A stretch of 64,000 nucleotides of DNA from a virus. Taxonomy: Duplodnaviria; Caudoviricetes. Where the stretch lies: positions 7,010-71,009 of IMG/VR virus record IMGVR_UViG_2834101283_000005; one strand, written 5' to 3'. The notes beneath the pieces are model-generated. The model saw only the letters and a list, made by a program, of their open reading frames with translations. It was not told where the DNA came from and ran no database searches. Of the stretch, positions 412 to 60,135 are shown one piece after another. A program made the position numbers and the translations under genes. The first letter of the stretch is position 1, and every line of letters begins with the position of its first letter.

Positions 412-609
412 AATAAATCTCCTTTTTATGAAGTCTTAGCACGGTATTGCCTGCTATCTATTGCATAGACCGTAGGTTCTCTTACGAAGTGTATTCGAGC
501 AATAATGCCTTATATAACTTCTACCGTTAGCCCCGTTAGGGACACCTGTAAGCAATACAGTTCACGTGAATTAACATCTATTGTTTCCAATAAACTCGAC
601 ATAAAATTT
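1..609 (-). mobile_element. Group I intron interrupting dnaE (5' part only)
   Basis: DnaE similarity stops at ...PERVTPAD, just before the expected (I/V)DxD catalytic motif. The exon ends in U (GAU, position 610), followed by a structured segment with a P4-like ACGGT...ACCGT(GCTAAG) pair and then an HNH ORF. The 3' exon is outside the window. Confidence 0.75.
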
Positions 610-1758
610 ATCTGCTGGGGTGACTCGCTCTGGGTTGCAGAACCGTTCAAATAAAAGGTTGTATCGCAGGGGGTCAACTTTGGTGATGCCCATAAAGTAA
701 GCCACATCGCTGCCGCAGACACTCCCACGCCCCATACCAGTGCGGATTCCTTTTTCTTTGCACATGCGTATCATGTCGTCGATGATGCACATGTAATTCA
801 AATAGTCCACTTTCCCAAGCATATCGATTTCGTAGTTGATACGGTCGATATGCTCTTTTTTATTGGTCCATTTGCCGACTTTCTTTTCCATGTAGCCTTC
901 ATTGCAGCGTTTACGGATGTAGGCTTCGGGGTCGGCGCAGAAGTTGGGGTAGTGTTGACCACCCACAGGGATTTCCACGTTGCATTTATTCACAATTTCC
1001 TTGACGTTGGCATAAAAGCTGTCTACGTCTTCCCTGCTGAACCCATGAAATTCCATCATGTAATCGTCCACTTCTTCGGTACTCATGAGATAGTACGTCT
1101 GGGTAGGGTAGTAGTCGCTTTCGTCTCCAAGGTTAAGCCATAAGCGGTGATACGGAGCGTCTTCTTTGCGGACATAGTGGCTGTCCAGCGTGACGATAAC
1201 TTTGTGACCATGAGCCTTGGCAAATTCATAGGCTTTTCGGTTGTATGCCTTTTGGTCATCCATGTCGTGTGGCTGTACCTCAACGTACAAGTCACGTCCA
1301 AAGATACAGGACAGCTCGTGCATGTCTTCCAATGGGTCGTCCTGTCGGAGGATACCGGCAAGGCAAGCGGTAGTGCAAATCAGTCCTTCGTGAAACTCGT
1401 CAATGGCTGTCATATTGATTCTGGGCTTCTTGTAGAAGTTTTCATGGGCAAACTTATTGAGCCGCATGAGATTCTTGTAGCCATCAAGGTCTTTTGCAAG
1501 AAACAGCATGTGATACATTGTGGATTCCTTGAGGTTGATGTCATGTACGAAATACATTTCGCATCCCAACAGCGGCTTGATTCCTTCCTTTTTGCAGGCT
1601 TCGTAGAACTGGAACAGGCCACTGACGGTGCCGTGGTCGGTGAGAGCTAAGGCTTCATAACCAAGCTCTTTGGCTCTCTTTGGCAATTCATTTATGTTCG
1701 CATATCCGTCATGGAGGCTATTATCGCCATGGCTATGCAAATTAGCTACAAAGTTCAT
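571..1758 (-). CDS. dnaE: DNA polymerase III alpha subunit, exon 1 (PHP domain and start of palm; exon probably ends at 610)
   Basis: NLHSHGDNSLHDG, ALTDHG, GMGRGSVCGS and LLFERFCNPER motifs of DnaE. Confidence 0.93.
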   Translation of the reverse strand: MNFVANLHSHGDNSLHDGYANINELPKRAKELGYEALALTDHGTVSGLFQFYEACKKEGIKPLLGCEMYFVHDINLKESTMYHMLFLAKDLDGYKNLMRLNKFAHENFYKKPRINMTAIDEFHEGLICTTACLAGILRQDDPLEDMHELSCIFGRDLYVEVQPHDMDDQKAYNRKAYEFAKAHGHKVIVTLDSHYVRKEDAPYHRLWLNLGDESDYYPTQTYYLMSTEEVDDYMMEFHGFSREDVDSFYANVKEIVNKCNVEIPVGGQHYPNFCADPEAYIRKRCNEGYMEKKVGKWTNKKEHIDRINYEIDMLGKVDYLNYMCIIDDMIRMCKEKGIRTGMGRGSVCGSDVAYFMGITKVDPLRYNLLFERFCNPERVTPADKFYVEFIGNNRC

Positions 1759-5919: not shown

Positions 5920-7046
5920 CAAGCGTTCAAGTCATTCAGGACTTGACGCCGATTCCGAACGCAGACCGCATTGAGACGGCGCATGTGCTCGGCTGGGAAG
6001 CTGTTGTGAAAAAGGGAGATTTCAAGGTAGGTGACAAATGCGTCTACATCGAAATTGACTCGCTACTCCCCGAAGACAACCCTGCGTTTGACTTTCTAAA
6101 GGATAGTAAGGGAAAAATCGAAAGAATCCGAACCAAGAAGCTTCGGGGACAGATTAGTCAAGGTTTGATAATGCCTATGTCGATACTGCCGGAAGACCAT
6201 GAGGTTGGCGACGACGTGACAAAGGTGCTGAAAATCAAGAAGTGGGAGCCGGATTTGTGGAACCGCCCGGCAGATAAACGTCCGAGTCGCCTTGTCCGCA
6301 AGTATAGTGGCAAGTGGGCGAACCGCCTCTTGTACAATAAGCCGTGGACGAATTGGTTCAGCAGATACCTTTTCACGCAGACAGCCAAGAGCTTCCCTGA
6401 CTTCATTAATCGCACTGACGAGACTCGCTGCCAAGCGATGCCAGAAGTTGTTGCTTATTATGCTGGCACTGATTGCGCTGTAACCGAAAAAATGGACGGC
6501 AGCTCTATCACTATTTGGTTTGACGATAAGCTCAAATTGCATGTCGCAAGCCGTAACCTTGAGGTGCTTGACACGAGCAATTATTTCTGGAAGGCGGTCA
6601 TTAACGAGGACATTGAGGATAAGCTTCGGGCTTGCTTTGTAAGCAACCTGGACAAGCTCAAGTGGTTATGCTTGCAGGGGGAACTCTGCGGGCCGAACAT
6701 TCAGGGCAACAAGTACAAGTTCAAGCAGAAAGGCATTTTCTTTTTCAATATTTTGTACTGCAACCCTGTTCGGTATCTGAGTTTGGCCAACTTGTGTGAC
6801 CTTACAACCCGCTGCGGACTCAAGACGGTACCTATTTTGGATATGCAATATAAGCTTCCGAGTGACATCGCAAGTATCGTAGACATGTCCAAAGGCGAAT
6901 CGTATTACGGCAATACGCCGAGGGAAGGTGTGGTTGTCCGTCCAGAGCCGCCTATTATCGACCATAACGGGTTTCCTGGGATGGTTGGCAATCGGGTTTC
7001 CTTCAAGGCAATCAACCCTGAATTTCTTTTGAAGTACAAATTGTAG
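5907..7046 (+). CDS. RNA ligase, DRB0094-like (N-terminal OB/tRNA-binding fold and Rnl2-type nucleotidyltransferase)
   Basis: MRKLAS...PIPNADRIE...VVKKGDFKVGD..YIEIDSLLP; motif I TEKMDGSS; LQGELCGPNIQGN; REGVVVR; SFKAINPEFLL. Confidence 0.9.
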   Translation: MRKLASVQVIQDLTPIPNADRIETAHVLGWEAVVKKGDFKVGDKCVYIEIDSLLPEDNPAFDFLKDSKGKIERIRTKKLRGQISQGLIMPMSILPEDHEVGDDVTKVLKIKKWEPDLWNRPADKRPSRLVRKYSGKWANRLLYNKPWTNWFSRYLFTQTAKSFPDFINRTDETRCQAMPEVVAYYAGTDCAVTEKMDGSSITIWFDDKLKLHVASRNLEVLDTSNYFWKAVINEDIEDKLRACFVSNLDKLKWLCLQGELCGPNIQGNKYKFKQKGIFFFNILYCNPVRYLSLANLCDLTTRCGLKTVPILDMQYKLPSDIASIVDMSKGESYYGNTPREGVVVRPEPPIIDHNGFPGMVGNRVSFKAINPEFLLKYKL

Positions 7047-8086
7047 GTGATTTATATGGGGGTCAAAGCTTGGGTGCTTTATATTGCAATGAGCATCCTT
7101 GACATAATTTGCATTTTCTTTGCCATCAAGGGAGCGGCGATTTTATTCGGGTTTGAGGGGATTGAACCGTTTGCCTTTGCGGTTGCTGTTGGTTTTGGCG
7201 TAAATAATTTCTTGGAGCGTGACAGATTTGGAATGCGAGATTAAACGAGAGTTCCGTGGTGAGGTCAACGGGTATGAGTTTGACAATCAAAACGCATATT
7301 TCGCCGTATCGAACATCATAGACACTCTCGAACATAAATTAGGAAGAAAATTTGGTGACTTTGAATTGGCGGCTTTGATTGCTGATGCCTATTTCTTGTA
7401 TCAAGATTTAGGGCTGTCAGCAGAGAAATTTGAAGATTCCTGCCTTTCAAACATATCTAAGGGTTCTTTAAGGTTTCTACCTAAGAACAAAAAAATTAAA
7501 GAATACAACGAATTATTGGGAGGGTTGTTGTCATGATGCGTAAATTTGATGTCGGTGATGATGTCTTTTATAACGGTGAGAGGGCTACGATTATTGGCCT
7601 TTATGTTCTTAACGGAAAAGCTAAATACCTCATTGCTGTCGATACAGACCACTCTGTTTTTGCTGCCGAGGATGAATTACTCGGCCTTGACTTAGATAAT
7701 GGTGTGCTGCGCTTCATTAAGGAAACGTATTCGTTTTTGCAGCACCATGAGGATGTTAAAGGGTTTAGCCTTTCGCTTGGCCCTACAGGAGTCTTGTCGG
7801 TAGACATTACAACGAATGTTCAGGGCAACTTTGATTTCGACCTTGATAAATTCGATTATGTGATGGCGACCGAGTACATCAACCGCTTTTTAGATTAATG
7901 AAGCGATACATGGTGTATGGTAACATTGCCGTTCCTGTCTACGCCGAGGATGAAGACGAAGCGATGGATAAGGTAGCTGAATGGATTGACGACATTTACG
8001 ACCGTCATCATGTTGCCGATAGTATTGAACTAACCGGTGCAGAACGGGACTACGATGGTGACTTTGACAAAGAATTATTGAGTTAG
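7047..8086 (+). CDS. Four small hypothetical proteins (7047-7244 membrane, 7219-7536, 7533-7898, 7898-8086)
   Basis: Tightly coupled ORFs with SD sites. Confidence 0.6.
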
Positions 8087-8089
8087 GGG

Positions 8090-9244
8090 GTGATTGCGGT
8101 ACTTAAAGATTACAATGATTTGCTTAAAAATGGCATAGAGATAGCGTCGTTAAAGACGGTTCCGCTTGATATTGCGGCTCTTGAGATTGAGTTGGACAAC
8201 TTGAGCGACAAAGAATCTGAGTATCGCAAAGCCTCGGCGTTTTGCCGCACGGTCAAGGACGGCCTGGTCAAGAGCGACATTGCGGAGCTGTTGGCCGACC
8301 GATGGAATAAGCCGGTAAAGGAAATTAAACAGTACCTGCAGGTCGACGCTGATTCAGCAGACGAGTTGCTTGCGTTGGCTCACGGTGTAGATGACTGCTT
8401 TGCCGACTTCAAGAATTTCCTGTCTGGCGGCGTCATCAACCTTGGGCTTAAATCCATCGACGAGTCCATTGGAGGCATTCAACCTACGGATGTTATTGGC
8501 TTGGCTGCATATTCTAATCATGGTAAATCCTTCTTGGCGGCCAAGATTGCGGCTTATCAGCTCGTAAGAGAAAAGCGTAACGTTTTAATTATCTCGCGAG
8601 AAATGACCAGAGGGGCATACCTTCAAAGTATTGTCCAAAACATCCTTCACATGCCCAAGCGCAAACTGATGGACTACATCAATACTGACCAAGGGGCAGA
8701 ACTGTACGGCAAGGTCACGGATGCCCTGTCGAACCGGCTACGGATTGTGGACGAAGGGTGCGGCTCCATCGATGCTATTTGGAAGCTGACACAAGCGTTG
8801 AACACGAATGGGTTTCATGTAGATTTCGTCATTGTTGACCATTTTATGCTGCTCGACGGCGTAAGCGAATTTACCAAGTTTGAAGAACAGGCCAACATGA
8901 TGAAAGCCTTCACGAAGCACTTCAAGGCTCCCTTGTTGATGCTTACTCAGTTCAATGATGCGTCGCTATCGTCTATGTCAAAGAAAAAGACGCCGACGAA
9001 CAATAACATCAAGGGCAGCAACGCATTTATTGCCGTGTGCGATGTAACGCTTCTTCTCTGGCGACCAGCCTTACTCGAAAACAGTATGGACTCGATAGCC
9101 AAGGAAGAAAACAAAGATATTACCTATATTAAAATCAGCAAAAGCAGAAGGGAGTTGGAAGGGCCTGTGCTGTTCAAATATAAGTACAACAAGGATGATT
9201 ACGGCTTCAATGAAGTGCCGTTAGGAGATTTTTCGGATGATTGA
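8090..9244 (+). CDS. DnaB-like replicative helicase
   Basis: Walker A variant AAYSNHGKS, VIVDH Walker B, LMLTQ, IKGS, ISKSRR. Confidence 0.88.
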   Translation: MIAVLKDYNDLLKNGIEIASLKTVPLDIAALEIELDNLSDKESEYRKASAFCRTVKDGLVKSDIAELLADRWNKPVKEIKQYLQVDADSADELLALAHGVDDCFADFKNFLSGGVINLGLKSIDESIGGIQPTDVIGLAAYSNHGKSFLAAKIAAYQLVREKRNVLIISREMTRGAYLQSIVQNILHMPKRKLMDYINTDQGAELYGKVTDALSNRLRIVDEGCGSIDAIWKLTQALNTNGFHVDFVIVDHFMLLDGVSEFTKFEEQANMMKAFTKHFKAPLLMLTQFNDASLSSMSKKKTPTNNNIKGSNAFIAVCDVTLLLWRPALLENSMDSIAKEENKDITYIKISKSRRELEGPVLFKYKYNKDDYGFNEVPLGDFSDD

Positions 9245-13140: not shown

Positions 13141-13484
13141 ATAGCAAAGCCAAGGGCAAAAGAGCAGAACTTGCCATTGCCCATTATTTTCAGGGACATG
13201 GGTTCCCTGATGCTCACCGAACGGCTCAAGTTATGGGCAAGACTGGCGGTTGCGCTGACGTAGAAGGTGTTCCGGGAATCCACATCGAGGTCAAGCATAA
13301 CGAACACTTGAATCTTTATGATGCGATTGACCAAGCGGTTCGTGACAGCGAAGCCAATGGGAACGGGAATGTCCCTACGGTCTTCCACAAGAAGAACGGT
13401 AAAGAATGGCTTGTGACAATGCGCCTTGATGATTGGTTCGGATTATATGAACGATGGAAAGGTGATAGTACCAATGCACAGTAA
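13134..13484 (+). CDS. Hjc-like Holliday junction resolvase (PD-(D/E)XK)
   Basis: NSKAKGKRAE...ADV...IHIEVKH; GTG start at 13134. Confidence 0.8.
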   Translation: MVNSKAKGKRAELAIAHYFQGHGFPDAHRTAQVMGKTGGCADVEGVPGIHIEVKHNEHLNLYDAIDQAVRDSEANGNGNVPTVFHKKNGKEWLVTMRLDDWFGLYERWKGDSTNAQ

Positions 13485-13777
13485 AGCATTGACCCTTGGG
13501 AGCCTGTTTGACGGCTTGGGTGGGTGGCAAATTGCTGCCGTAAGGGCAAACGTTACGCCACTCTGGTCAAGTGAAATAGAAAAATTTCCCTTGACGTTGA
13601 CTAAGATTAGGTTTCCAGAGACGGAGCAGTTGGGCGACATTACAAAGATTGACGGGAGCCAAATTGAGCCGGTTGATATTTTGACTATGGGAAGCCCATG
13701 CCAAAATTTGTCCGTTTCAGGCAACAGGAAGGGATTGAACGGTAACGAATCGTGTTTATTTAGAGAGGGGATTAGAA

Positions 13778-14202
13778 TTGCAAGAGAAATGCGTAAGGCA
13801 ACCAACGGGGTGTATCCCAGATACATTGTTTGGGAAAATGTTCCCGGAGCCTTCTCCACTAACAAAGGGGCTGACTTTAGAGCTGTGCTGGAAGAAATCA
13901 CAGAAACCGAAATTCCAATGCCTCGTAGCGGGAAATGGGCAACAGCTGGACTGGTTAGAAGCCCTGAGTGTACAGTCGGATGGCGAACATTGGACGCCCA
14001 GTATTGGGGAGTCGCCCAACGTCGCCGTAGAATCTTCCTTGTCGCAGATTATCGTGACGGGGGGGGGGCTGCGTTGAGGAAATACTTTTTAAGCCCGAAA
14101 GCCTGTCAGGGAATCCTGCGCCGAGCCAAGACGAAAGGGAAAACGTTGCCGGACATCCTGACAAAAGCTTTGGAATCGCAAGCTGCGACCCTTGGTGTAT
14201 AG
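13778..14202 (+). pseudogene. Overlapping alternative-frame protein (M.EcoHK31I beta-like), broken by the same G10 tract
   Basis: LFGKMFPE...GESPNVAVESSLSQI before the tract joins RKYFLSPKACQGILRRAKTKGKTLP after it when one G is added. Confidence 0.65.
14059..14068 (+). repeat. G10 homopolymer tract
   Basis: GAC-GGGGGGGGGG-CT. Confidence 0.95.
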
Positions 14203-14799
14203 CCGGTAACATAATCGGTCGCAATGACTGCAACGGCGGCAATCAACTAGGTGTTCAAAAGGATAAAAGCTACACTTTAACGACACAGGATAGGCATGCT
14301 GTTGTTTATGACATGGGGCATCCTTGTGACGTTATCAGGGAATTTCGGCGCGTGTCTCCTACATTATTGAGTGCTATGGGAACACACGGGAATAGAGTGC
14401 CTTTGGTTCTAAATGACCAAGGCGGAGAATCTATAGGGGTTAGCCATGGGGTTACAGCCACTCTCAGGGCAAGCGAACATGGTCATCAACCAGTTATCGT
14501 CCAGGCTGATTCGTTTAGCAGTTTTAGCGATACTGGCGTGGCAAGTTCACTCAAAGCCAGCGGCGGTGTCCTTGGGGGAGGCTCAGAAAACCTTGTCACA
14601 GGGAATGAGGAAGTTTGCCCAGTGGTGCGCAAGCTAACTCCCTTGGAATGTGAGCGGCTACAGGGGCTACCAGATAATTGGACACTGATTGACGATAAAA
14701 GTTGCAGCGATTCGGCTCGATATAAAGCTATTGGGAACGGCATGGCACAACCTTGTGCAGACTTTATTATTGCCAGAATCGCAGAAGTAGAAAGGAAAT

Positions 14800-15318
14800 A
14801 TGAAGGAAATTAAAAGGAGCAATGTTCCTTGTTGGGGAAATGAGCAGAATCCCTTCCATGTCAACGAAATGGACGATACGATTTCACAAGTCAATTCGAT
14901 TGACACGAGTATTGCAGAAGTTAATTCGTTGCCGTGGACGTGGAAGCCTGACCCAAGTCTAACACCCACAGAACTTATTGATTCGTGGAAGAATTTCCAA
15001 ACCACTCTTAATGGAGCAGTAGAGAAACAGAAAAAGGAACAAGCGGCTAAGAAGACAGAAAGACTAAAAGAAAGGAAAGTGTTAGGGATGAACAAAAGCA
15101 GTGTCGAGTACGCAAATAAATTGAAACGATTTTTGAAGTATAAAGAGTACGATAAAGACACGCTGAAGCTGCTTGGAGTTATTGCAACTCGTAGCAGTGA
15201 AAAGCATACGAAATTGGATAGCGAAATTAAGAATGCCATTGTTGAGCTTGAATGTAGGCTTAACGACAGCACATGGCTCGTTAATCAAGCAAGAATGATT
15301 GGGAAGGGGATTCACTAA
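14800..15318 (+). CDS. Hypothetical protein
   Basis: Operonic ORF with SD. Confidence 0.6.
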   Translation: MKEIKRSNVPCWGNEQNPFHVNEMDDTISQVNSIDTSIAEVNSLPWTWKPDPSLTPTELIDSWKNFQTTLNGAVEKQKKEQAAKKTERLKERKVLGMNKSSVEYANKLKRFLKYKEYDKDTLKLLGVIATRSSEKHTKLDSEIKNAIVELECRLNDSTWLVNQARMIGKGIH

Positions 15319-17418: not shown

Positions 17419-17700
17419 TTGGTTATTACGAAATATTACATCGCAAATTGTTTCCATTGCAAGCATATTGAACAAACATTTGCGGATTTAAAGAAACAGT
17501 TTGAGTGCGAACAAATTAAATTCCGTGAAGTGTTCGTTGCCGGCGAATCTGATTTGACCCGCAAATTGAAGCTTCACATCTTTCCGGCGGTTATTATTAC
17601 AGATAATGAAGGCAACACATTAGAAAGAGTAGAAGGTGTGATTCTTCCTAAAGAATTGAAAAAGATGGTAGAAGGGGCGGTTCGTTCAGTTAATGACTAA
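17419..17700 (+). CDS. Thioredoxin/glutaredoxin-like protein
   Basis: CFHC motif, FPAVII. Confidence 0.75.
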   Translation: MVITKYYIANCFHCKHIEQTFADLKKQFECEQIKFREVFVAGESDLTRKLKLHIFPAVIITDNEGNTLERVEGVILPKELKKMVEGAVRSVND

Positions 17701-19519
17701 CAAAAAACAATACTTCAACTGGCTCACAGCAGACCAGATTCAAAAGAAAATTGATTTTATCAAGTTTTATGTGGGACAGGAAAATAACGCATCGGCGTCT
17801 TTGGTTGACCCAAATTCCAATGTGTCCGAAAAGAATATGGGGACGTTGGTTTCGGAAATGTACAAATTCGAGAACATTCAGGTTAGCCGAAAAATCATTC
17901 AAGATAAGCTGCGGGAATTGTTTGGTGACGACCTTGCAGAGCAGTACAACAAAGACATTGAGTCTCATCTTTTATACTGTCACGATGAGACTTTAGCGGC
18001 GTTCCTTCCGTATTGTGCAAGTGTTACCATGTACCCCTTCCTTTTGGGCGGTACAAAATGTATCGGCGGCACTAGTAAAGCCCCTACAAATCTTCAAAGT
18101 TTCTGTGGTTCCTTTGTCAATTTGGTATACCAGTTGGCGACAAATTGGGCTGGAGCCACGGCGACGGTCGAGTTCCTTATGTACTTTGATTATTTCGCAC
18201 GTAAAGAATACGGAAATGATTACCTTGTGACTAACCCGAAAGAAATTGCTCAAGAATTTCAAGGTGTCGTGTATGCGTTAAACCAACCGGCGGCAGCACG
18301 AGGCAACCAATCTGTGTTTTGGAACATCAGTGTATTCGATAAATTTTATTTCGATTCTATTTTTGGCGGGTTTAAATTCCCCGATGGAGACGAACCAAAC
18401 TACGACAACCTTGCAGCCTTGCAAAAGTTTTTCATGGATTGGTTCCGAGAAGAACGAAAGAAAGAGCTTCTAACGTACCCGGTCTTGACAGCGGCTATTT
18501 TAGTAGATGAAGAGGGAAACCCTCGCGACGATGATTTCGTCGAGTTCTTGGCTGACGAAATGTCGAAAGGTTTAAGTTTCTTCCTCTATGAGTCCAAGAG
18601 TGCCGACTCGCTTGCGTCGTGTTGCCGGTTGCGTAACGAATTGGCCGACAACGAATTTTCGTACACTTTGGGCGCAGGTGGGGTAAGCACTGGTTCTTTC
18701 CGGGTCATCACGGTCAATATGAATCGGTATGTCCAGATGTACGAAAAAGATTTACCATTTAGTGGCCTGATTGAGCGAATTCATAAATACCTTGTGGCTC
18801 ACCGGGAGGTTATCAAATGGTATGTCGGTAAAGGCATGCTTCCGGCTTACACTGCCCAGTTTATTAATTTGGACACCCAGTTTGGCACCATTGGTATCAA
18901 CGGCATGTTAGAAGCTATGGAGTTTAAGGGCTATTCTCCTACAAAAGATATGGATGCTTACCAAAATGCTGTGGCTACGTATCTCAAAGTTATCTACGAT
19001 TCCAACAGTAAAGACCGCATTAAGTACGGATTCCGATTTAACACAGAATTTGTCCCCGCCGAGGGATTGGGTGTTAAAAATGCCCAGTGGGACAAACATG
19101 ACGGCTTAGTGGTGCCGAGAGACTGCTACAATAGCTATTTCTTCCCTGTAGAAGATAACTCACTGAACATTTTGGATAAACTGATTCTTCATAGCAACAA
19201 GACCACACAATACCTTGATGGTGGTAGTGCATGTCACCTCAATATTGCCCAGTTGCTCAGCAAAGAACAGGCATTACAGCTTATCAAGGTAGCTGGCATA
19301 TTGAACGTGAACTACTGGACATATAATTGCCTAGTTACGATTTGCAATGATTGTGGTTACATCAACGTCAACACCGAAGACCATTGTATCAAGTGTGGCT
19401 CCAAGAATGTTGATTATGGCACGAGAGTTATTGGCTACTTAAAGAGAATTAGTTCCTACTCCAAGGAACGTATGATGGAAGCCTCTAAACGTTTCTATGT
19501 AAAAGTAAAGAAGGAGTAG
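17693..19519 (+). CDS. nrdD: Class III anaerobic ribonucleoside-triphosphate reductase
   Basis: HD..PYC, SCCRL, FVPAEGLG, CNDC/CIKC, RVIGYL. Confidence 0.95.
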   Translation: MTNKKQYFNWLTADQIQKKIDFIKFYVGQENNASASLVDPNSNVSEKNMGTLVSEMYKFENIQVSRKIIQDKLRELFGDDLAEQYNKDIESHLLYCHDETLAAFLPYCASVTMYPFLLGGTKCIGGTSKAPTNLQSFCGSFVNLVYQLATNWAGATATVEFLMYFDYFARKEYGNDYLVTNPKEIAQEFQGVVYALNQPAAARGNQSVFWNISVFDKFYFDSIFGGFKFPDGDEPNYDNLAALQKFFMDWFREERKKELLTYPVLTAAILVDEEGNPRDDDFVEFLADEMSKGLSFFLYESKSADSLASCCRLRNELADNEFSYTLGAGGVSTGSFRVITVNMNRYVQMYEKDLPFSGLIERIHKYLVAHREVIKWYVGKGMLPAYTAQFINLDTQFGTIGINGMLEAMEFKGYSPTKDMDAYQNAVATYLKVIYDSNSKDRIKYGFRFNTEFVPAEGLGVKNAQWDKHDGLVVPRDCYNSYFFPVEDNSLNILDKLILHSNKTTQYLDGGSACHLNIAQLLSKEQALQLIKVAGILNVNYWTYNCLVTICNDCGYINVNTEDHCIKCGSKNVDYGTRVIGYLKRISSYSKERMMEASKRFYVKVKKE

Positions 19520-51644: not shown

Positions 51645-54600
51645 TTGGGTAAAGGCGGAGGCAAAGGCGGAAAGTCAGGCTTAGGGAAAGCGTTAGGCCT
51701 TGTTGGGGCTGTGGCCGGGTTTGCATTTCCAGGGATGTTTGGGATTTCTTCTGGGCTTTTATGGGTACAGAGAACAGCCGGAGCCATTATGGGGTTGTCT
51801 TTAGGCCAGACAATCGGGTCGGCATTAGACCCTATTGACCAAGAGACAAAGGCAAGTTCGTTCGATTCCAAGATGAATACCGTCGACTCGGATGCTCGTA
51901 TTCCTTTGGTGTATGGGACCCGAATGATTGGCGGATTACAGTCTTGGCACCAAACCAATTCAGATGATAAATGGTTAATTAAAGACGTAATCCTCGGTGA
52001 AGGGCAGTTCAGTGGTGCATACGGCTTGACAGCCAATGGCTACTTATTGAAACCGAACGGGAATATCCCGACGGTTGTTCGTCAGTACACGACAAACAGC
52101 CACTATATGTCCTCTATCAGCACTGGGAATAATCCTGTTTTTGGGCTAATTAACTGGAAATATCCAGACGCATCCGTTGAAATTAAAAATGGCGGATGGG
52201 GACGGCCCACTGATAACGATAAGCAGCTTATTCTTCGTTGGGGAACCAACGAGGTAAAGATTTGGTTGCAAGACCCAGTAGATTTAAATGACGATAGTTC
52301 CAATGATTATAATTGCTCTTTCTCTTTGTTGTACCAGTATCTCGAAGGGATTCATTATGATACCAATTTTGCAGCGGAAGGGTGGCAAGTAGTCAACCCT
52401 GTTGTTATTTCTGACCCGCCGGAAGATTTAGCTACGTGTAGTCGTACAGGCTGTTACCAAAAGCCAGTCATGTTCCGGCTGGAATCATATGACGCCACAA
52501 ACGATTCATGGATTCAGTTTTTTGATGGCACACAGGGTGCGCCGGAATATTACGAAAAGTCCGGGGCATACCCCAACATGGCATATCTCCATGCGTACCT
52601 TAAATATTCCGACAAGTTGGGGGCAGGGAACCCTACAGTAGTCTGTATTGCACATGGCCGTAAAATTTACGACACACGGACCGGCAAGACCGACTATTCG
52701 GAAAACCCCGCGATGATTGTCCGAGACTTTTTGATTAACCGAACGTTCGGCGCAGGGCATTTCATCACAGCGGACATGCTTGATGAGGATTCCTTTAAGG
52801 ATGTGGCGAATTATTGTGATGAAATTATTACGAGTACCGATGGCGCAGGGCGTTCCATTACGGAACCCCGTTACCGGCTGAATATCGTTGTCAACGAAAA
52901 GCAGACTTATCTTGAGACGTTGCAGAATATGTTGGCTTGCTTTGCCGGGTTCCTCGTATTTACCAACGGGAAAGTAGCACTAAAAGTAGAAAAAGCCGAA
53001 TCGGCGGTTTATTCTTTTACGGACGATAATATTATCGCCGACAGTATTTCCTATAAGGCCGACTCTACGGCAGACAGCCCGAATCGCTACAACGTAAAAT
53101 ACATCGAACCGAACCTTAACTGGACGGCAGTCCCGGTTATCGTGGAAGATTTAGTAAGCCAGGCGGCAAGCCCGATTGGCCGAGGAAAAGTCATTTCCAA
53201 AGATGTTGAGCTGATTGGGGTTACAAGCCAGTCCCAGGCTTCACGGTTAGGGAAAATTTATCGTGACCTTGTACGATTATGCCCCATCACCATGACCTTT
53301 AAAACTGGGATGCAGGGGATGCATTTGGAACCGGGCGATGTCGTGTTGGTTTCGCATAAAATGGTCGTTGAAGGCAAAGAAGTGGATTTGTTCAAGGATA
53401 TGCCGGTGCGTATCTTGCAAATCCAAGACGACAACGGCGAATACACGCTGACTTGTCGTCAATACAACGCATCCATTTATGACGACCGATTCGGTGGTAA
53501 CTTACAACTTCATTCGTATACGCCGATTCAGCCCGGCGACGAGGAAGAAATTATGCCCACGGCTGTCCCTCAACCAGAAAATCTAAGTGCCTACACCGTG
53601 TATAAGCAAGGGCCAGATGGTGCGGTTGCCTACGATTTGGTTGTTAAATATGACTTGCCGGATGGTTATGGAATTGAAACTGGTTTGGTCTATTATAAAA
53701 CCAATGAAGATTACGACTTGGAAAACGCCGGTGTTATTGAAGAAGATGTCCCGGCTGACGAAATTGGTTTTTCTCGTGAGTGGAAATATGCCGGTGACGC
53801 GCCTGGCGAATTCATTTTTAGTAACGTGAATGTGGGCGTAACGTATAAAATCATGGTCCGCTGCCGTAACATTAATGGCGGCGTTTCGTCCGAAGTCGGC
53901 GCGCCTACGGAAACCATTACGATTGCCCGCAAGACAGAAGTCCCGAACACTCCTGCAGGTTTCAGCGTTGTATTTGGGCAAACGTGCAAATTTGTCTGGG
54001 AGCCGGTAACAAACTCTGATGTCGACTTCTACGAATTGCGTAGCGACGAAAACGCAGGCGAACAGGAAGGATTAATTGCTAGAACAACCAACACGAGCGT
54101 TGAAGCTTCATTAACCGAACGGACTGGGACGGTCTATTTGTTCGCTCATAATGCTACAAAAGCCTATGGTTATCCTGCGGTTTTGGAATACAGCAAGGAA
54201 GAACCGCCGACGCCAGAAGTTCCTAAACTAGAGGCTAAATTAGGTGGCTTTAGCATTACTGCCGACCCAATCCCTAATGGATGCATGGGGATGAGCATTT
54301 ATATTAGTGCTTCTGGTGCTGATAATGCAGATACCGTCATCTATACACAAAATAACGTCTACTCTCATATGTGTGGAGCAGGTATTTACGACGTACAGAT
54401 TGCCTACAAGGACATCTTCGGCGAAGGCAATAAGTCTCAAGTCTCAAGCGTCCTTGTAAAAGTGTTGGTTGACAACGACTTTTTGGATGACGAAGCGGTC
54501 AGCGTAGAAAAAATTGATAAGGTTATCCAAGATGCTATCGACCAGGGCATTGAAGCTAAGAATCAAGTAGTCCAGTTAGTTGGCAACTTGAATTCTGAGG

Positions 54601-54944
54601 ATGGGGCAAAGAACTATTCGGCGTTGGTACAGCTTGAAGACGCAATTAATCTGCGAGTCAAAAAGGATGATGTGATTAACCAAATCAATGTATCCCCAGA
54701 GAGTATCTTAATTGATGGTAGCAAGGTTCATGTGACTGGTGACACTATTTTTGATAATAACGTTATCACAAACGGTATGGTTCAAGCCGGAGCCATTTCG
54801 ACCGATAAATTAGCGGCCCAAGATATAGCTATCGGCGTTGACCCGACGACAGGCATTGTGGGTGGCGCAGTTCGGCTTGACGAAAATGGTCTTACGGTAA
54901 CAGGAGATATGGGACGTCGGTTGTCTTTGACGACCAAGGCATGA
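51645..54944 (+). CDS. Central tail tip/host-specificity protein (lambda gpJ-like, FnIII domains)
   Basis: IPLVYG, YPNMAY, YSENPA.I.RD.L, LEPGDVV. Confidence 0.88.
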   Translation: MGKGGGKGGKSGLGKALGLVGAVAGFAFPGMFGISSGLLWVQRTAGAIMGLSLGQTIGSALDPIDQETKASSFDSKMNTVDSDARIPLVYGTRMIGGLQSWHQTNSDDKWLIKDVILGEGQFSGAYGLTANGYLLKPNGNIPTVVRQYTTNSHYMSSISTGNNPVFGLINWKYPDASVEIKNGGWGRPTDNDKQLILRWGTNEVKIWLQDPVDLNDDSSNDYNCSFSLLYQYLEGIHYDTNFAAEGWQVVNPVVISDPPEDLATCSRTGCYQKPVMFRLESYDATNDSWIQFFDGTQGAPEYYEKSGAYPNMAYLHAYLKYSDKLGAGNPTVVCIAHGRKIYDTRTGKTDYSENPAMIVRDFLINRTFGAGHFITADMLDEDSFKDVANYCDEIITSTDGAGRSITEPRYRLNIVVNEKQTYLETLQNMLACFAGFLVFTNGKVALKVEKAESAVYSFTDDNIIADSISYKADSTADSPNRYNVKYIEPNLNWTAVPVIVEDLVSQAASPIGRGKVISKDVELIGVTSQSQASRLGKIYRDLVRLCPITMTFKTGMQGMHLEPGDVVLVSHKMVVEGKEVDLFKDMPVRILQIQDDNGEYTLTCRQYNASIYDDRFGGNLQLHSYTPIQPGDEEEIMPTAVPQPENLSAYTVYKQGPDGAVAYDLVVKYDLPDGYGIETGLVYYKTNEDYDLENAGVIEEDVPADEIGFSREWKYAGDAPGEFIFSNVNVGVTYKIMVRCRNINGGVSSEVGAPTETITIARKTEVPNTPAGFSVVFGQTCKFVWEPVTNSDVDFYELRSDENAGEQEGLIARTTNTSVEASLTERTGTVYLFAHNATKAYGYPAVLEYSKEEPPTPEVPKLEAKLGGFSITADPIPNGCMGMSIYISASGADNADTVIYTQNNVYSHMCGAGIYDVQIAYKDIFGEGNKSQVSSVLVKVLVDNDFLDDEAVSVEKIDKVIQDAIDQGIEAKNQVVQLVGNLNSEDGAKNYSALVQLEDAINLRVKKDDVINQINVSPESILIDGSKVHVTGDTIFDNNVITNGMVQAGAISTDKLAAQDIAIGVDPTTGIVGGAVRLDENGLTVTGDMGRRLSLTTKA

Positions 54945-55899: not shown

Positions 55900-58125
55900 G
55901 TGAAGCGACAAGCATTTCAGCGCGGGGAAATCCGCGATTCAAACGACAATATTATCCAAGCCGGTTCATATGGCAAAAAGTCGCCGTTTGTCACAAAGGA
56001 TAACCAAGGTATTCTTGACTATATCATAAACAACTTCCAGGCGTTGTTTGATATGGTCAGCGGAGCCTTTATTTACGTAGACAACTATGCTTCATTGCCC
56101 GAAGCCGGCTTAGATAATGCATTTTATGTGACGAAAGATGACGGTAAGACGTATCGCTGGGACGGGGAATCATGGGTTTTAGTTTCTTCGTCCGTGGATG
56201 GTTTGTCTGCATACGAGATTGCCGTAAATCATGGTTTCGAAGGCAGCGAAGACGAATGGCTTCAAAGCCTTATTTGTCAAGTTATCGACGCCGAAGTGGA
56301 TGATAACGGCAATCTGTTCTTTAATTTCAACAATGGGGTTAAGGTAGAGACACCGATTCAGCCGATTATTGATGCTATAAAATATCGCGACGAAGCAGCG
56401 GAAAGTGCGACCGAGGCGAAAACAAGTGAGACTAACTCGAAGACATCAGAACTTAATGCTAAATCTTCCGAGACAGCAGCTAAAGCGTCGGAGAATGCGG
56501 CGGCGGAATCTGAATCTAATGCCCAGGTCAGCGAAACTAATGCAAAGGCATCCGAAAATTTAGCTCAGGCTTGGGCCGTATCGGAAGGTTCCCCAGACAA
56601 CCAAAGCGACAACGAAAGCCCTACAGGAAAAACTAGAAGTGCTCGTTCATGGGCGTTAGAAACGATTGCGGCGAAAAAAGCTGCGGCAGTATCGGAGGCT
56701 AACGCAAAGGTCAGCGAAACGAACGCCAAGGCGTCCGAAGTGTCTAGTGCCAATAGCGCATCTGCTGCGGCATCATCAGAAACCCATGCGGCAAGTAGCG
56801 AAACGTCCGTGGCCCAAGCGTTAGCTGAAATTAAAGTCATCCAAAATTCCCTTGAGAGCGCGCTCTCAAAAGTTACTGGCATGGCTAAGTATTGTGGCTC
56901 GGTCAATAACTACTCAGACTTGCCGACAAGCGGGAATAAAACTGGTGATGTGTGGAATGTTGTGAATGCTGATTCCTCGCATGAAATCAAAGCTGGTGAC
57001 AATGTTATCTGGAATGGGGCTGGATGGGACAACCTTAGTGGCTTCGTAGATTTGTCCAATTACCCAACGAATGCGGACGTGTCAAAAGCTGTGGTTTCTG
57101 TCACTTACAGCAACGACCAATTAACATTTATTCAAAAGGATGGCAGCCGTATTTCTACTACGGTGAATAATGTTAATTCTGCCGTTAAGGCCACATATGA
57201 TGGTAATGGGCGTAACATAGCCAATACTTACGAAACCCAAAGCGATGCGTCTAGTGCGCATCAAGAACTAAGCGGGTATATTAACGGTATCGTATCTGGG
57301 ACAACAACTGTAGGGAAAGCCAAACAGGATGCTTCCGGCAACATCATCAATGAAACATATTTGCGACAGGATGTAGCTTCGAGTGTTTACGAGAGTAAAT
57401 CGCAAGCTAATAGCTTGGTCAAAACAGTTACGGAAAATGAGGGGAAAGTCACGGTTACGACTCAAGCTGGCTCTCAGAATAGTTTTTACACCGGTTTGAA
57501 CTTATTGCAACGTAATAAGAAATACGCTGTAGGCGATATAGCGTATAGCCCAAATCTTCCTAGTTGGGCATACCTAGAATGTATTCAAGCAGGCACAACG
57601 GGTGCGGCTGAACCCGACCTCCAAAGTAGTGGGGGGGGGGTACTAACGTCTGATGGGAGTGTACGTTGGCGCATTCGAGACAAAAGATGCCGCTATGAAG
57701 TTGGCGATATAGTGCCTAAATTGGTATCACCCAAGGATTACGAATATTTGCTTATATGTGACGGCAGTAGCTTTGATACGAGTAAATACCCTTTATTGGC
57801 TGAGGTGTTCCCGGATGGAGTATTGCCAGATTTAAGAGAGCGGTATCTCGAAGGAGCTGCTACATCAAAACAATATCGGGAAGCAGGGTTGCCGGGGATA
57901 TATGCTGCGGTTGCTGCTAAAGACGCTGTTGCATGGGGGAGTACAGGCGGAGCCTTTTACCTTAGTGGAGATTATTACAATGGGCCATTAGGGAATGGCA
58001 CGCAACCATATGCACAGAATATACTCAATTTCAATGCGTCATTGTGCAGTCCGATTTATGGCAAATCTGATACAGTACAACCTGCTTCTTATACAGTTAC
58101 TTACTATGTGTGTTGCGGAGGATAA
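55900..58125 (+). CDS. Tail fibre protein (AK.SE repeats, tail-collar-like C-terminus) with an in-frame G10 tract at 57631-57640
   Basis: NAKASE repeats; LICDGSSF...LPDLRERY; C-terminal IYGKSDTVQP. Confidence 0.88.
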   Translation: MKRQAFQRGEIRDSNDNIIQAGSYGKKSPFVTKDNQGILDYIINNFQALFDMVSGAFIYVDNYASLPEAGLDNAFYVTKDDGKTYRWDGESWVLVSSSVDGLSAYEIAVNHGFEGSEDEWLQSLICQVIDAEVDDNGNLFFNFNNGVKVETPIQPIIDAIKYRDEAAESATEAKTSETNSKTSELNAKSSETAAKASENAAAESESNAQVSETNAKASENLAQAWAVSEGSPDNQSDNESPTGKTRSARSWALETIAAKKAAAVSEANAKVSETNAKASEVSSANSASAAASSETHAASSETSVAQALAEIKVIQNSLESALSKVTGMAKYCGSVNNYSDLPTSGNKTGDVWNVVNADSSHEIKAGDNVIWNGAGWDNLSGFVDLSNYPTNADVSKAVVSVTYSNDQLTFIQKDGSRISTTVNNVNSAVKATYDGNGRNIANTYETQSDASSAHQELSGYINGIVSGTTTVGKAKQDASGNIINETYLRQDVASSVYESKSQANSLVKTVTENEGKVTVTTQAGSQNSFYTGLNLLQRNKKYAVGDIAYSPNLPSWAYLECIQAGTTGAAEPDLQSSGGGVLTSDGSVRWRIRDKRCRYEVGDIVPKLVSPKDYEYLLICDGSSFDTSKYPLLAEVFPDGVLPDLRERYLEGAATSKQYREAGLPGIYAAVAAKDAVAWGSTGGAFYLSGDYYNGPLGNGTQPYAQNILNFNASLCSPIYGKSDTVQPASYTVTYYVCCGG

Positions 58126-58128
58126 AGA

Positions 58129-58600
58129 TTGAATATAAACGATGTGATTACAGACGGTACGGCAAAATTTGTCGTCCGCTCTATGGGATTTTTGGATTTA
58201 CTGGATGCCCTTCATCCTATTGGAGATATTTATTTGACAGTAAAAGAAGGGACTCCTTTTGCCAAATTTGGTTTCGGCCAGTGGAAACTTGTAGGACAAA
58301 ACAAATGTCTCTGGGGGGGGGGGTACTGATAATGTAGCAGGGACGGAAATCGAAGCAGGTTTGCCAGAAATATATGGCAACACTGATATAGGCGGATTCT
58401 CTGGGATATATTCTGAGGCTAGTGGCGCGTTCCACTCAACGATTGTTGTTCCTAATACTACTGTTGCTACGGTAGCAAGTGCGGACACTCATTTAGAAGT
58501 AGTAGATTTTATGGCTTCTCGGTATAACCCTATTTACGGCAAATCTACTACAGTACAACCACCAGCTTATATAGTATATATATGGCAGCGAATAGCATAG
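58129..58600 (+). pseudogene. Tail tip module 1, frameshifted at G11 (58313-58323)
   Basis: G10 would give QNKCLWGGGTDNVAGTEIEAGLP, colinear with modules 2 and 4. Confidence 0.85.
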
Positions 58601-58612
58601 CAAGGAGGATAT

Positions 58613-59095
58613 ATGCAGGAAAACGATATAATTACAGATGGAGCAGCCAAGTTTAAGGTTGTAAGTAAATCAATGTTACATTGGTTTGACATTATATACC
58701 CAGTTGGGAGTGTATATGCAACAACGAAAAAAGGGAAACCCTTTGAACTTGGCGAATGGGAATTAGTCGGGCAAGACGGGACTCTCTGGGGAGTAGGAGA
58801 AGATGAAGAAGCCGGGCAGAAGAAAGATGCTGGCCTACCGAATGCGACCGGCTCTTTTGCCACCTTTAATTGGTGGGACAAGTCTGGTGCTGGAGAGACT
58901 GCGGATTATGGAGTTATTCGTAGGCGGTACAATAACAATACAAAGGCGAGCACGGTTGCTGATAATAGTGGCGGAAAAGGATTTTTTAATACGTTTATAG
59001 ACGTTGAATTATCAGGCGGGAATGGTATTTATGGCAACTCAGATACAGTTCAACCCCCAGCATACACCGTCTATTTTTGGCATAGAATTGCTTAG
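58613..59095 (+). CDS. Tail tip module 2 (YPVGS-type, no G tract)
   Basis: IITDG..KF.V, YPVGSVY, DAGLPN, IYGNSDTVQPPAY. Confidence 0.85.
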   Translation: MQENDIITDGAAKFKVVSKSMLHWFDIIYPVGSVYATTKKGKPFELGEWELVGQDGTLWGVGEDEEAGQKKDAGLPNATGSFATFNWWDKSGAGETADYGVIRRRYNNNTKASTVADNSGGKGFFNTFIDVELSGGNGIYGNSDTVQPPAYTVYFWHRIA

Positions 59096-59103
59096 GAGGA
59101 TAT

Positions 59104-59628
59104 ATGATACAGGAAAATACAATTATTACGGACGGTTCATGTAAGTTCGTAGTACGAAATATTGGTGGGGGGGGGGTAATTTCTAAAGGTTTCATTGCGA
59201 TGTTCGATGGGACTTTTCAGAACGGATACCCCATAGACGAAACCACAGGACTTCCCGATACTCATTGGCATATATGTGATGGCACGAATGGGACTCCCGA
59301 TTTGAGGGATAGGTTTATTGTTGGTTCAGGAAGTTCATATAAGGTGGGCGACAAGGGCGGCGAAGAAAAACATAAGTTAGCGGTAAACGAGTTACCAGAA
59401 AGAACTGTTGTTTCTTTTAAAAACACTAGCGGGAAAGGTATTACCACCCAACCAATTAGAGTCTGGAATACCGAACTTGAGACGATGGTGAATAATGGCT
59501 GGGGAGATTGTAATATTTATGACGCTAAAAATAATGTAACCCCACCATTAACCTCTGGTAATTTATGGCAACCCCACGAAAACCGACCACCATATTACGC
59601 TTTAGCATTTATTAAAAAGATTAGATAG
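59104..59628 (+). CDS. Tail tip module 3 (tail-collar-type) with in-frame G10 (59167-59176)
   Basis: IITDG..KF.V; WHICDGTNGTPDLRDRF; HENRPPYYALAFI. Confidence 0.85.
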   Translation: MIQENTIITDGSCKFVVRNIGGGGVISKGFIAMFDGTFQNGYPIDETTGLPDTHWHICDGTNGTPDLRDRFIVGSGSSYKVGDKGGEEKHKLAVNELPERTVVSFKNTSGKGITTQPIRVWNTELETMVNNGWGDCNIYDAKNNVTPPLTSGNLWQPHENRPPYYALAFIKKIR

Positions 59629-59637
59629 GAGAAATTA

Positions 59638-60135
59638 TTGGACAATATGATTACAGACGGGACAGCTAAGTTTGCTGTCCGCAGCTTCAAATTCAAGGAT
59701 ATTTTAGTTGGCGTATTAGACGCCATTTTCCCCGTCGGGAGCATTTACTTGACAACAGCCGAGGGTAGCCCATTTGAAAGCTTTGAATTTGGCACTTGGG
59801 AACTTGTGTCGCAGGATAGATGCCTGATGGGGGGGGGGGCTAAACACCCTGTAGGAGAGAACGTAGAAGCAGGGCTGCCAAATATTATAGGTGGTGCTAA
59901 TTTTAGAGATTGTACTACCGAAAATAGAGATACGTTAATGCAAGCACACGATGCATTTTATACTAAAAAAACTCTTTGGAAAGGCCGTCATGGGTCACTT
60001 ACTATAGAAGCGAACGAAGACCCATATTATAACTATTTATATATGGATGCTTCTCGTTGTAGCAGCATCTACGGTGCATCCGATACGGTACAGCCCCCTG
60101 CGTACACGGTTTATGTGTACAAAAGAATAGCATAA
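59638..60135 (+). CDS. Tail tip module 4 (FPVGS-type) with in-frame G11 (59829-59839)
   Basis: MITDGTAKF.V; FPVGSIY; EAGLPN; IYGASDTVQPPAY. Confidence 0.85.
   Translation: MDNMITDGTAKFAVRSFKFKDILVGVLDAIFPVGSIYLTTAEGSPFESFEFGTWELVSQDRCLMGGGAKHPVGENVEAGLPNIIGGANFRDCTTENRDTLMQAHDAFYTKKTLWKGRHGSLTIEANEDPYYNYLYMDASRCSSIYGASDTVQPPAYTVYVYKRIA

Follow-up and report, generated by a model that had tools for sequence, protein, structure and literature searches.

Poly-G tracts that probably switch tail-fibre tips on and off at random in a gut prophage

In the Campylobacter phages of the genus Fletchervirus, hypermutable polyG tracts lie in the genes of receptor-binding proteins (Sorensen et al. 2021, as described in PMC10579305, PMC11959909 and bioRxiv 10.1101/2025.10.21.683753), and a 2025 review refers to this polyG phase variation, confined so far to lytic Campylobacter phages, as "an exceptional case" (PMC11959909). 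Contingency loci have since been extended to T-even and other phages by Gomez, Barrick and Waters, who also reported that homopolymer repeats are under-represented in coliphage tail-fibre genes (bioRxiv 10.1101/2025.10.21.683753). We found no description in the literature of poly-G-gated tip arrays in gut prophages. Here we describe a candidate for such an array, the side tail fibre cluster of IMG/VR virus record IMGVR_UViG_2834101283_000005, of which a stretch of 64,000 nucleotides was analyzed (positions 7,010 to 71,009 of the record; hereafter, the window). The window covers most of a 71-kb IMG/VR provirus that is rated complete, with siphovirus-type late genes and a GC content of about 45%. 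Judging from its sequence, this prophage probably switches parts of its host-recognition apparatus on and off at random. The features on which this reading is built are the following (ON, frame open through the tract; OFF, frame shifted at the tract).

55900 to 58125, + strand: side tail fibre of 741 amino acids (aa), matching PHROG tail-fibre families and, weakly, Collar
55900 to 57630, + strand: shaft of the fibre
57631 to 57640, + strand: G10 tract at the shaft/tip junction (SSGGGV); ON in the window
57641 to 58125, + strand: covalent distal tip of the fibre ("tip 0"), matching the hidden Markov model of the modules
58129 to 58600, + strand: tip module 1, Gp10_C type, open reading frames (ORFs) of 66 aa and 79 aa split by a G11 tract; OFF
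58313 to 58323, + strand: G11 tract of module 1
58613 to 59095, + strand: tip module 2, Gp10_C type, 160 aa, without a G tract; A6 run at 58727-58732
59104 to 59628, + strand: tip module 3, tail-collar type (phrog_8469, phrog_1800), 174 aa; ON
59167 to 59176, + strand: G10 tract of module 3, which immediately follows the N-terminal hairpin segment (20 residues)
59638 to 60135, + strand: tip module 4, Gp10_C type, 165 aa; ON
59829 to 59839, + strand: G11 tract of module 4
14059 to 14068, + strand: G10 tract in a C5 cytosine methylase gene (13426-14202; Pfam DNA_methylase, E 2.8e-31)

Each of modules 1-4 has its own Shine-Dalgarno sequence and start codon, and no convincing + strand terminator was seen inside the fibre cluster. 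An earlier note on this DNA had placed four tracts of G10-11 in the cluster, at 57631, 58313, 59167 and 59829, and one further such run in the 64 kb; upon re-counting, the four are G10, G11, G10 and G11, and the only other one is the G10 run at 14059-14068. All four lie on Gly codons of + strand ORFs, where they encode Gly-Gly-Gly, and a change of -2, -1, +1 or +2 at any of them gives a stop 0-4 sense codons past the tract, in line with the quick stops that the note had described. It had also called module 1 OFF: this is the case at G11; at G10 the frame runs on to a protein of 156 aa that is colinear with modules 2 and 4. Wherever it could be checked, the description in the note is correct.

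Among the G runs of the window there is a single G6; G7-G9 are absent, G10 occurs three times and G11 twice. No C run reaches 6. With the G7-G9 classes empty and long C runs missing, the tracts stand apart as a class of their own, rather than being the upper end of a continuous spread of lengths. G9 is matched 12 times in the window, compared with 0.26 times expected from shuffles. GGG accounts for 23% of Gly codons, and among the ten Gly-Gly-Gly runs in + strand ORFs four are pure G9, with mixed codons in the other six. Both alternative frames close within 0-4 codons at 6.2% of random codon positions in the genes of the phage, against four of four tracts. The use of GGG codons and the enrichment of out-of-frame stops would thus argue for selection around the tracts. 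Their positions in the proteins differ: the fibre tract precedes the hairpin, that of module 3 follows the hairpin, and in modules 1 and 4 the tract is reached only after about 60 codons.

The comparison of strains for which the note had asked revealed tract lengths that vary between related phages at four of four sites, with all three frames represented. For each tract-bearing gene (the fibre and modules 1, 3, and 4) both ON and OFF forms are on record, and for modules 3 and 4 both OFF frames occur among relatives. In the fibre, G9 or G12 is predicted to give a protein ending in ...GGG(G)Y-stop at 581-582 aa. The three closest public fibres (95, 88, and 83% identical; P0153, P0154, and P0155, the P numbers denoting public proteins) are 582, 581, and 582 aa long and end in ...SSGGGGY, ...SSGGGY, and ...SSGGGGY, the exact products predicted for G12, G9, and G12. 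Two more distant fibre homologues (P0156 and P0157) are ON and fused through the junction.

For module 1, the public proteins imply tracts of G8, G10, G11, and G12. The ON form P0273 is 156 aa long and 99% identical over the post-tract part; further ON forms (P0274, P0276, and P0279) carry other variable cores, and the OFF forms P0275, P0277, P0278, and P0280, called in other frames through the tract, imply G8, G11, and G12. Module 3 is on record with 174 aa (ON), with 142 aa, and with 154 aa, this last form beginning as MGGGV at its tract; one 154-aa form, P0137, agrees with the window everywhere else. For module 4, P0009 is ON, P0008 and P0128 imply G10, and P0130 implies G13. Its shifted-frame forms start with M-P/L-D-GGG(G)-A upstream of the tract, and two forms are only 65 aa long. 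Length differences were also read directly from DNA: in run X2, from one chicken-gut metagenome, the tracts at 58313, 59167, and 59829 differ by -1, -2, and -2 G. The X2 contigs come from a relative about 90-97% identical over the compared pieces, in which the variable cores are replaced.

The combinations differ as well. In the window, tips 0, 2, 3, and 4 are ON and module 1 is OFF; public data include an ON module 1 next to OFF modules 3 and 4, and also an OFF fibre accompanied by an OFF module 1. Independent ON/OFF switching of the tip genes, as the note had proposed, thus fits the comparative evidence. The part of the proposal that made module 2 constitutive is less certain: module 2 is perhaps not strictly so, because one public variant is frameshifted at the A6 run.

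Such differences might be artefactual if homopolymer sequencing or assembly errors stood behind them, with the true tract lengths fixed and the frameshifts, including that of module 1, spurious. Runs of G10-11 are error-prone in sequencing, an A6/A7 difference exists in one public contig, and Logan contigs of runs X1 and X3 terminate exactly within tracts (at 57631, 58316, and 59836). These contig ends are only a hint of length-heterogeneous sites, since low coverage could produce them equally well. Against the error explanation, the differences reach 3 G, involve all three frames and many independent assemblies, and occur only at these tracts; an isolate genome, that of Megasphaera massiliensis NP3, is OFF at two of the sites; and consensus assemblies report the majority length. 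The tracts themselves, their codon choice, and the flanking stops are not artefacts. We therefore regard errors as a very improbable account of the locus.

In another account, it is the RNA polymerase or the ribosome that slips at the G run, and each genotype yields truncated and full-length products in a fixed ratio. Transcriptional slippage is possible at long homopolymers, and recoding of this kind would let OFF genotypes leak, which could account for the tolerance of truncated fibres. However, length differences are directly observed at the DNA level, no structure that would stimulate frameshifting was seen (no search aimed at one was made), and recoding can coexist with slippage of the DNA; as the explanation of the tracts it seems improbable to us.

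The tracts keep their positions beyond the closest relatives. The prophage of M. massiliensis NP3 (locus L079) encodes a fibre whose N-terminus is homologous to that of the window fibre and whose shaft ends ...EPDWQTIKSNMGG-stop at a G7 run (L079 5983-5989); the tip goes on in the +1 frame, so that the gene is OFF. This G7 lies at the shaft/tip junction equivalent to that of the window. The NP3 homologue of module 3 carries a G9 run at the equivalent site (L079 6954-6962) and is OFF too. Only two G9 runs exist in the 2.7-Mb NP3 genome, and both are in this prophage (6954-6962 and 9029-9037), which indicates that the tracts are a trait of the phage rather than of the general mutational style of the host. 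Across 5-17% protein divergence, and into another species, the tracts stay at equivalent sites and the frames downstream of them remain open.

This conservation bears on the possibility that the tracts are neutral hot spots in a decaying prophage, where slippage would be unselected and the OFF copies would be pseudogenes. Many copies are indeed OFF, and accessory genes of prophages often decay. On the other side, the structural genes are intact in a provirus rated complete, tracts and open downstream frames have been kept over the divergence given above, an intact ON form exists for every gene, and the out-of-frame stops and the GGG codons argue for selection. Neutral decay accordingly has little probability in our estimation.

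Taken with the frame logic, the comparison makes it likely that the poly-G tracts are hypermutable contingency tracts through which slipped-strand switching controls the fibre tip and three stand-alone tips. Slipped-strand mispairing during replication of the prophage or the phage would add or remove a G, and one slip would move one gene between an open frame and a stop within a few codons. The junction tract would gate the distal tip of the shaft itself, and the three others would each gate one of the stand-alone tip genes, of which there are four in this late operon. As the switching would act by frame and gene by gene, it would be combinatorial. Genotypes with different sets of receptor-binding tips would then coexist in a lysate or a population of lysogens, which might serve as bet-hedging against changing receptors on the host surface. 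Switching within one population would be frequent and reversible under this proposal, the tips would bind receptors, and the host range would change with them.

The note had further read the switching as one without an invertase or a diversity-generating retroelement (DGR), and the searches bear this out. No reverse transcriptase (RVT_1), as a DGR would have, is present in the 71-kb provirus, and no match to a serine recombinase (Resolvase), as a Gin/Cin/Hin-type invertible segment would have, was obtained in it. There are no significant inverted repeats at the fibre, where only a weak 24-nt pair, 75% complementary, was found, and the single tyrosine recombinase of the provirus lies about 27 kb away from the fibre region.

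Two further arrangements were considered and set aside. Recombination of cassettes between tracts would join non-equivalent protein positions, and the paralogues have only 60-80% DNA identity even in their conserved ends; with the tracts at different positions, such recombination would not give colinear proteins. Coupling through a leader peptide fits poorly with N-terminal segments that are homologous to the fibre hairpin and in frame with the tips, and with tracts that lie about 60 codons inside modules 1 and 4.

At the level of domains, modules 1 (N-terminal part), 2, and 4 pass the Pfam gathering cut-off of PF21939 Gp10_C (27 bits) with 32.3, 36.5, and 40.5 bits, and the fibre tip, which like module 3 is of tail-collar type, reaches 22.2 bits against the tail collar family PF07484, below its cut-off of 24 bits. 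Module 3 itself has no match in Pfam and is placed by PHROG profiles with the tail-collar fibre families, namely phrog_8469 (E 5.7e-18) and phrog_1800. Searched against solved structures, a profile of the module homologues led to T4 gp10 and to an L-shaped tail fibre. The AlphaFold2 (AF2) model of module 4, a monomer of low confidence (mean predicted local distance difference test score, pLDDT, 66.8), gave no Foldseek match at E <= 0.001, and its best matches in PDB were to the C-terminal domain of T4 gp10, weak and with a template modelling score of 0.28.

The hairpin with which the modules open suggests a more specific arrangement, in which the junction tract picks between a covalent tip and an open socket. 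An out-of-frame shaft would have an incomplete last domain, to be completed non-covalently by the N-terminal beta-hairpin of a stand-alone tip that is ON. This would refine the slippage reading and does not exclude it; we put it forward tentatively, as rather unlikely. The hairpin I-T-D-G-T-A-K-F-x-V-R opens all four modules, which are of two tip families, and is homologous to L-T-S-D-G-S-V-R-W-R-I-R, the fibre segment right after the junction tract. Seven fibres have this junction, and in public data at least four of them stop there; the phrog_20658 profile is continuous across the tract (fibre residues 520-591). In an AF2 model of the shaft end with the tip, the hairpin has a pLDDT of about 81, the preceding domain 77-87, and the following chain 32-43; in the stand-alone model of module 4 the hairpin reaches only 59-61. 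However, pLDDT is no measure of contacts and both models are poor overall (means of 57 and 67), and the truncated fibres could be plain OFF variants. The tips could also attach elsewhere on the baseplate.

Returning to slippage switching as such, several points weigh against it. Most of the tract lengths of relatives were deduced from the ends and starts of proteins as set by gene callers, not from DNA. The evidence from sequencing runs consists of assembled contigs only; they come from metagenomes of birds, chicken gut, and faeces, have word shares of 0.05-0.09, and speak for presence and, in one run, for tract differences, but are no proof of habitat. The small modules are taken as receptor-binding by homology alone (PF21939 and the tail-collar PHROGs), and this role is best called putative. 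The host is probably related to Megasphaera and from the chicken gut; the likeness to Megasphaera is taken from the source names of fibres 41-44% identical and from the NP3 prophage, and the protein atlas gave "Viruses" as its only source. Finally, the near-identical public variant of module 2, P0135, has a start frame that needs A7, compared with A6 at 58727-58732 in the window, and the contig that bears it has module 1 ON, modules 3 and 4 OFF, and module 2 shifted at the A6; this shift may be a slower second switch or a homopolymer error in that assembly.

The fifth tract of the window, in the C5 cytosine methylase gene, makes the methylase a second class of contingency gene in this phage. 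C-terminal methylase motifs are found in a separate downstream ORF (14313-14813). The second G9 run of the NP3 prophage (L079:9029) is in a gene whose NPPF motif points to a probable DNA methyltransferase, so that fibre genes and a methylase appear to be gated together in both the window phage and the NP3 prophage.

The phage also encodes replication proteins of its own, a PHP and DNA polymerase III alpha fragment, a DnaB-like helicase, and an anaerobic ribonucleotide reductase (listed at 571-1758 (-), 8090-9244 (+), and 17693-19519 (+)). A phage-borne replicase could affect slippage rates at the G tracts. The surroundings of the fibre cluster are made up of the following late genes.

Late gene set of siphovirus type: portal
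Late genes: tape-measure protein with a lysozyme domain, minor tail proteins, and a baseplate-hub-like protein
51645 to 54944: J-like central fibre, 1099 aa
60144 to 60653, + strand: CBM_5_12 protein (Pfam PF02839, E 2.7e-18), which ends the fibre cluster just before the lysis genes

How widely the arrangement is spread was assessed by a profile search of GTDB genomes for the modules, which returned 79 loci from many gut phyla. Runs of at least 8 G or C occur in 8 of them; 9 of the 16 runs are in module frames, compared with 19% expected (p = 0.001), and the remaining ones are mostly in neighbouring tip-like ORFs. A Christensenella sp. metagenome-assembled genome (MAG; L045, 33% GC) has G8-9 in three of four tandem modules (4516, 5016, and 5964), one ON and two OFF, with the tracts directly following an N-terminal segment of about 14-24 residues (M-x-K-F-K-I...). 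This genome contains 11 G9 sites in 1.1 Mb, and the host itself may therefore also use polyG. An Erysipelotrichaceae contig has two G9 tracts, both ON, and in a Desulfovibrio prophage, listed among the tract-bearing examples, the module adjoins a J-like protein. In a prophage of a Bulleidia sp. MAG (L063), a module is split by G10 at 6178. Altogether, a hairpin or short N-terminal segment, a G run, and a predicted tip domain, in this order, recur in prophages of Megasphaera, Veillonellaceae, Christensenella, and Erysipelotrichaceae.

Two loci gave further observations. In L063, a perfect 23-nt inverted repeat (7498-7520 and 7909-7931) surrounds 388 nt, and the opposite strand (7692-7964) carries an alternative copy of the C-terminal end of a collar-type tip gene of 287 aa; the repeat-flanked piece looks like an invertible tip segment, in the cluster of the G10-split module. 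In Dialister sp. (L068), five C8-9 runs about 900 bp apart (2997, 4652, 5586, 6461, and 7348) each mark the 5' end of one paralogue in a tandem series; the paralogues, about 290 aa long, have a hydrophobic N-terminus and a tail-collar/Gp10_C-like C-terminus, and their upstream ATG is often in another frame. The series may represent cell-surface or tail proteins that vary in phase as a family.

No tracts were found in more distant relatives of the fibre (IMG/VR, at most 46% identity; other Megasphaeraceae genomes), which makes the trait a sporadic one, limited to certain lineages. Other searches returned few relatives: blastn of the region against GenBank phages gave no match, tblastn of module 4 gave only two unannotated faecal phage fragments, the searches for related loci yielded none for module 4 in IMG/VR and none for module 2 in GTDB genomes, and genomes of the NP3 family gave only distant DNA matches.

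If the recurrence of the design across gut phyla holds up, the broad or shifting host range of gut phages may commonly stem, so far unnoticed, from tips that are reshuffled at random and heritably, and this would yield "frameshifted" tail genes that annotation pipelines drop as pseudogenes. The principle of polyG slippage would be extended to a temperate prophage of a gut anaerobe, with traces of the tip-gating design in prophages of several gut phyla. If shafts are indeed completed by separate tips, the result would be a strand-complemented tail fibre with a tip repertoire set combinatorially by poly-G slippage.

Among the known tail proteins, modules 1, 2, and 4 are alike to the C-terminal domain of T4 gp10 (PF21939; PDB 2fkk), to which both the profile and the AF2 model point. 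Here, however, they are stand-alone siphovirus proteins of 155-175 aa and not a domain of a 602-aa baseplate wedge protein. In phages T2 and S16, the separate tip adhesin gp38 docks on the end of the gp37 fibre. The modules resemble gp38 in being small separate proteins that would form the receptor-binding end of a fibre; they have no sequence relation to it, and docking is hypothetical here.

As for switching, the invertible segments of Mu (G) and P1 (C) and the DGR of Bordetella phage BPP-1 likewise diversify the distal part of a fibre, with alternative tips beside the fibre. In contrast to them, the present locus has no Gin/Cin-type recombinase, inverted repeats, or reverse transcriptase, and the switching would be by frame. 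It shares its logic with the bacterial contingency loci of Campylobacter, Haemophilus, and Neisseria and with those of T2 and T4, namely slipped-strand mispairing in homopolymers, reversible frameshifts, and bet-hedging, and the gated methylase gene (window 14059) gives it a likeness to bacterial phasevarions. The T2 and T4 loci are A runs of 6-9 in defence-evasion genes (bioRxiv 10.1101/2025.10.21.683753), whereas here G tracts are concentrated in fibre genes.

The closest parallel is thus with Fletchervirus, where G runs also lie inside receptor-binding genes and several tracts occur per genome. Like there, long G runs (G10-11) are found here in fibre and tip genes, their lengths differ among relatives, and a slip toggles the genes ON and OFF in silico. 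In Fletchervirus the length changes lead to phase-variable expression and mixed progeny; here the length differences are seen between relatives. Those phages are lytic, AT-rich myoviruses of a host that itself makes wide use of polyG, whereas the present one, of siphovirus type, is temperate and resides as a prophage in a gut anaerobe, and the related host genome of NP3 is without G9 outside its prophage. The layout is also the richer of the two: the tracts here gate an array of stand-alone tip genes together with the joint between the shaft and the tip of the fibre, which would combine a switch at the joint with spare tips that are switched independently.

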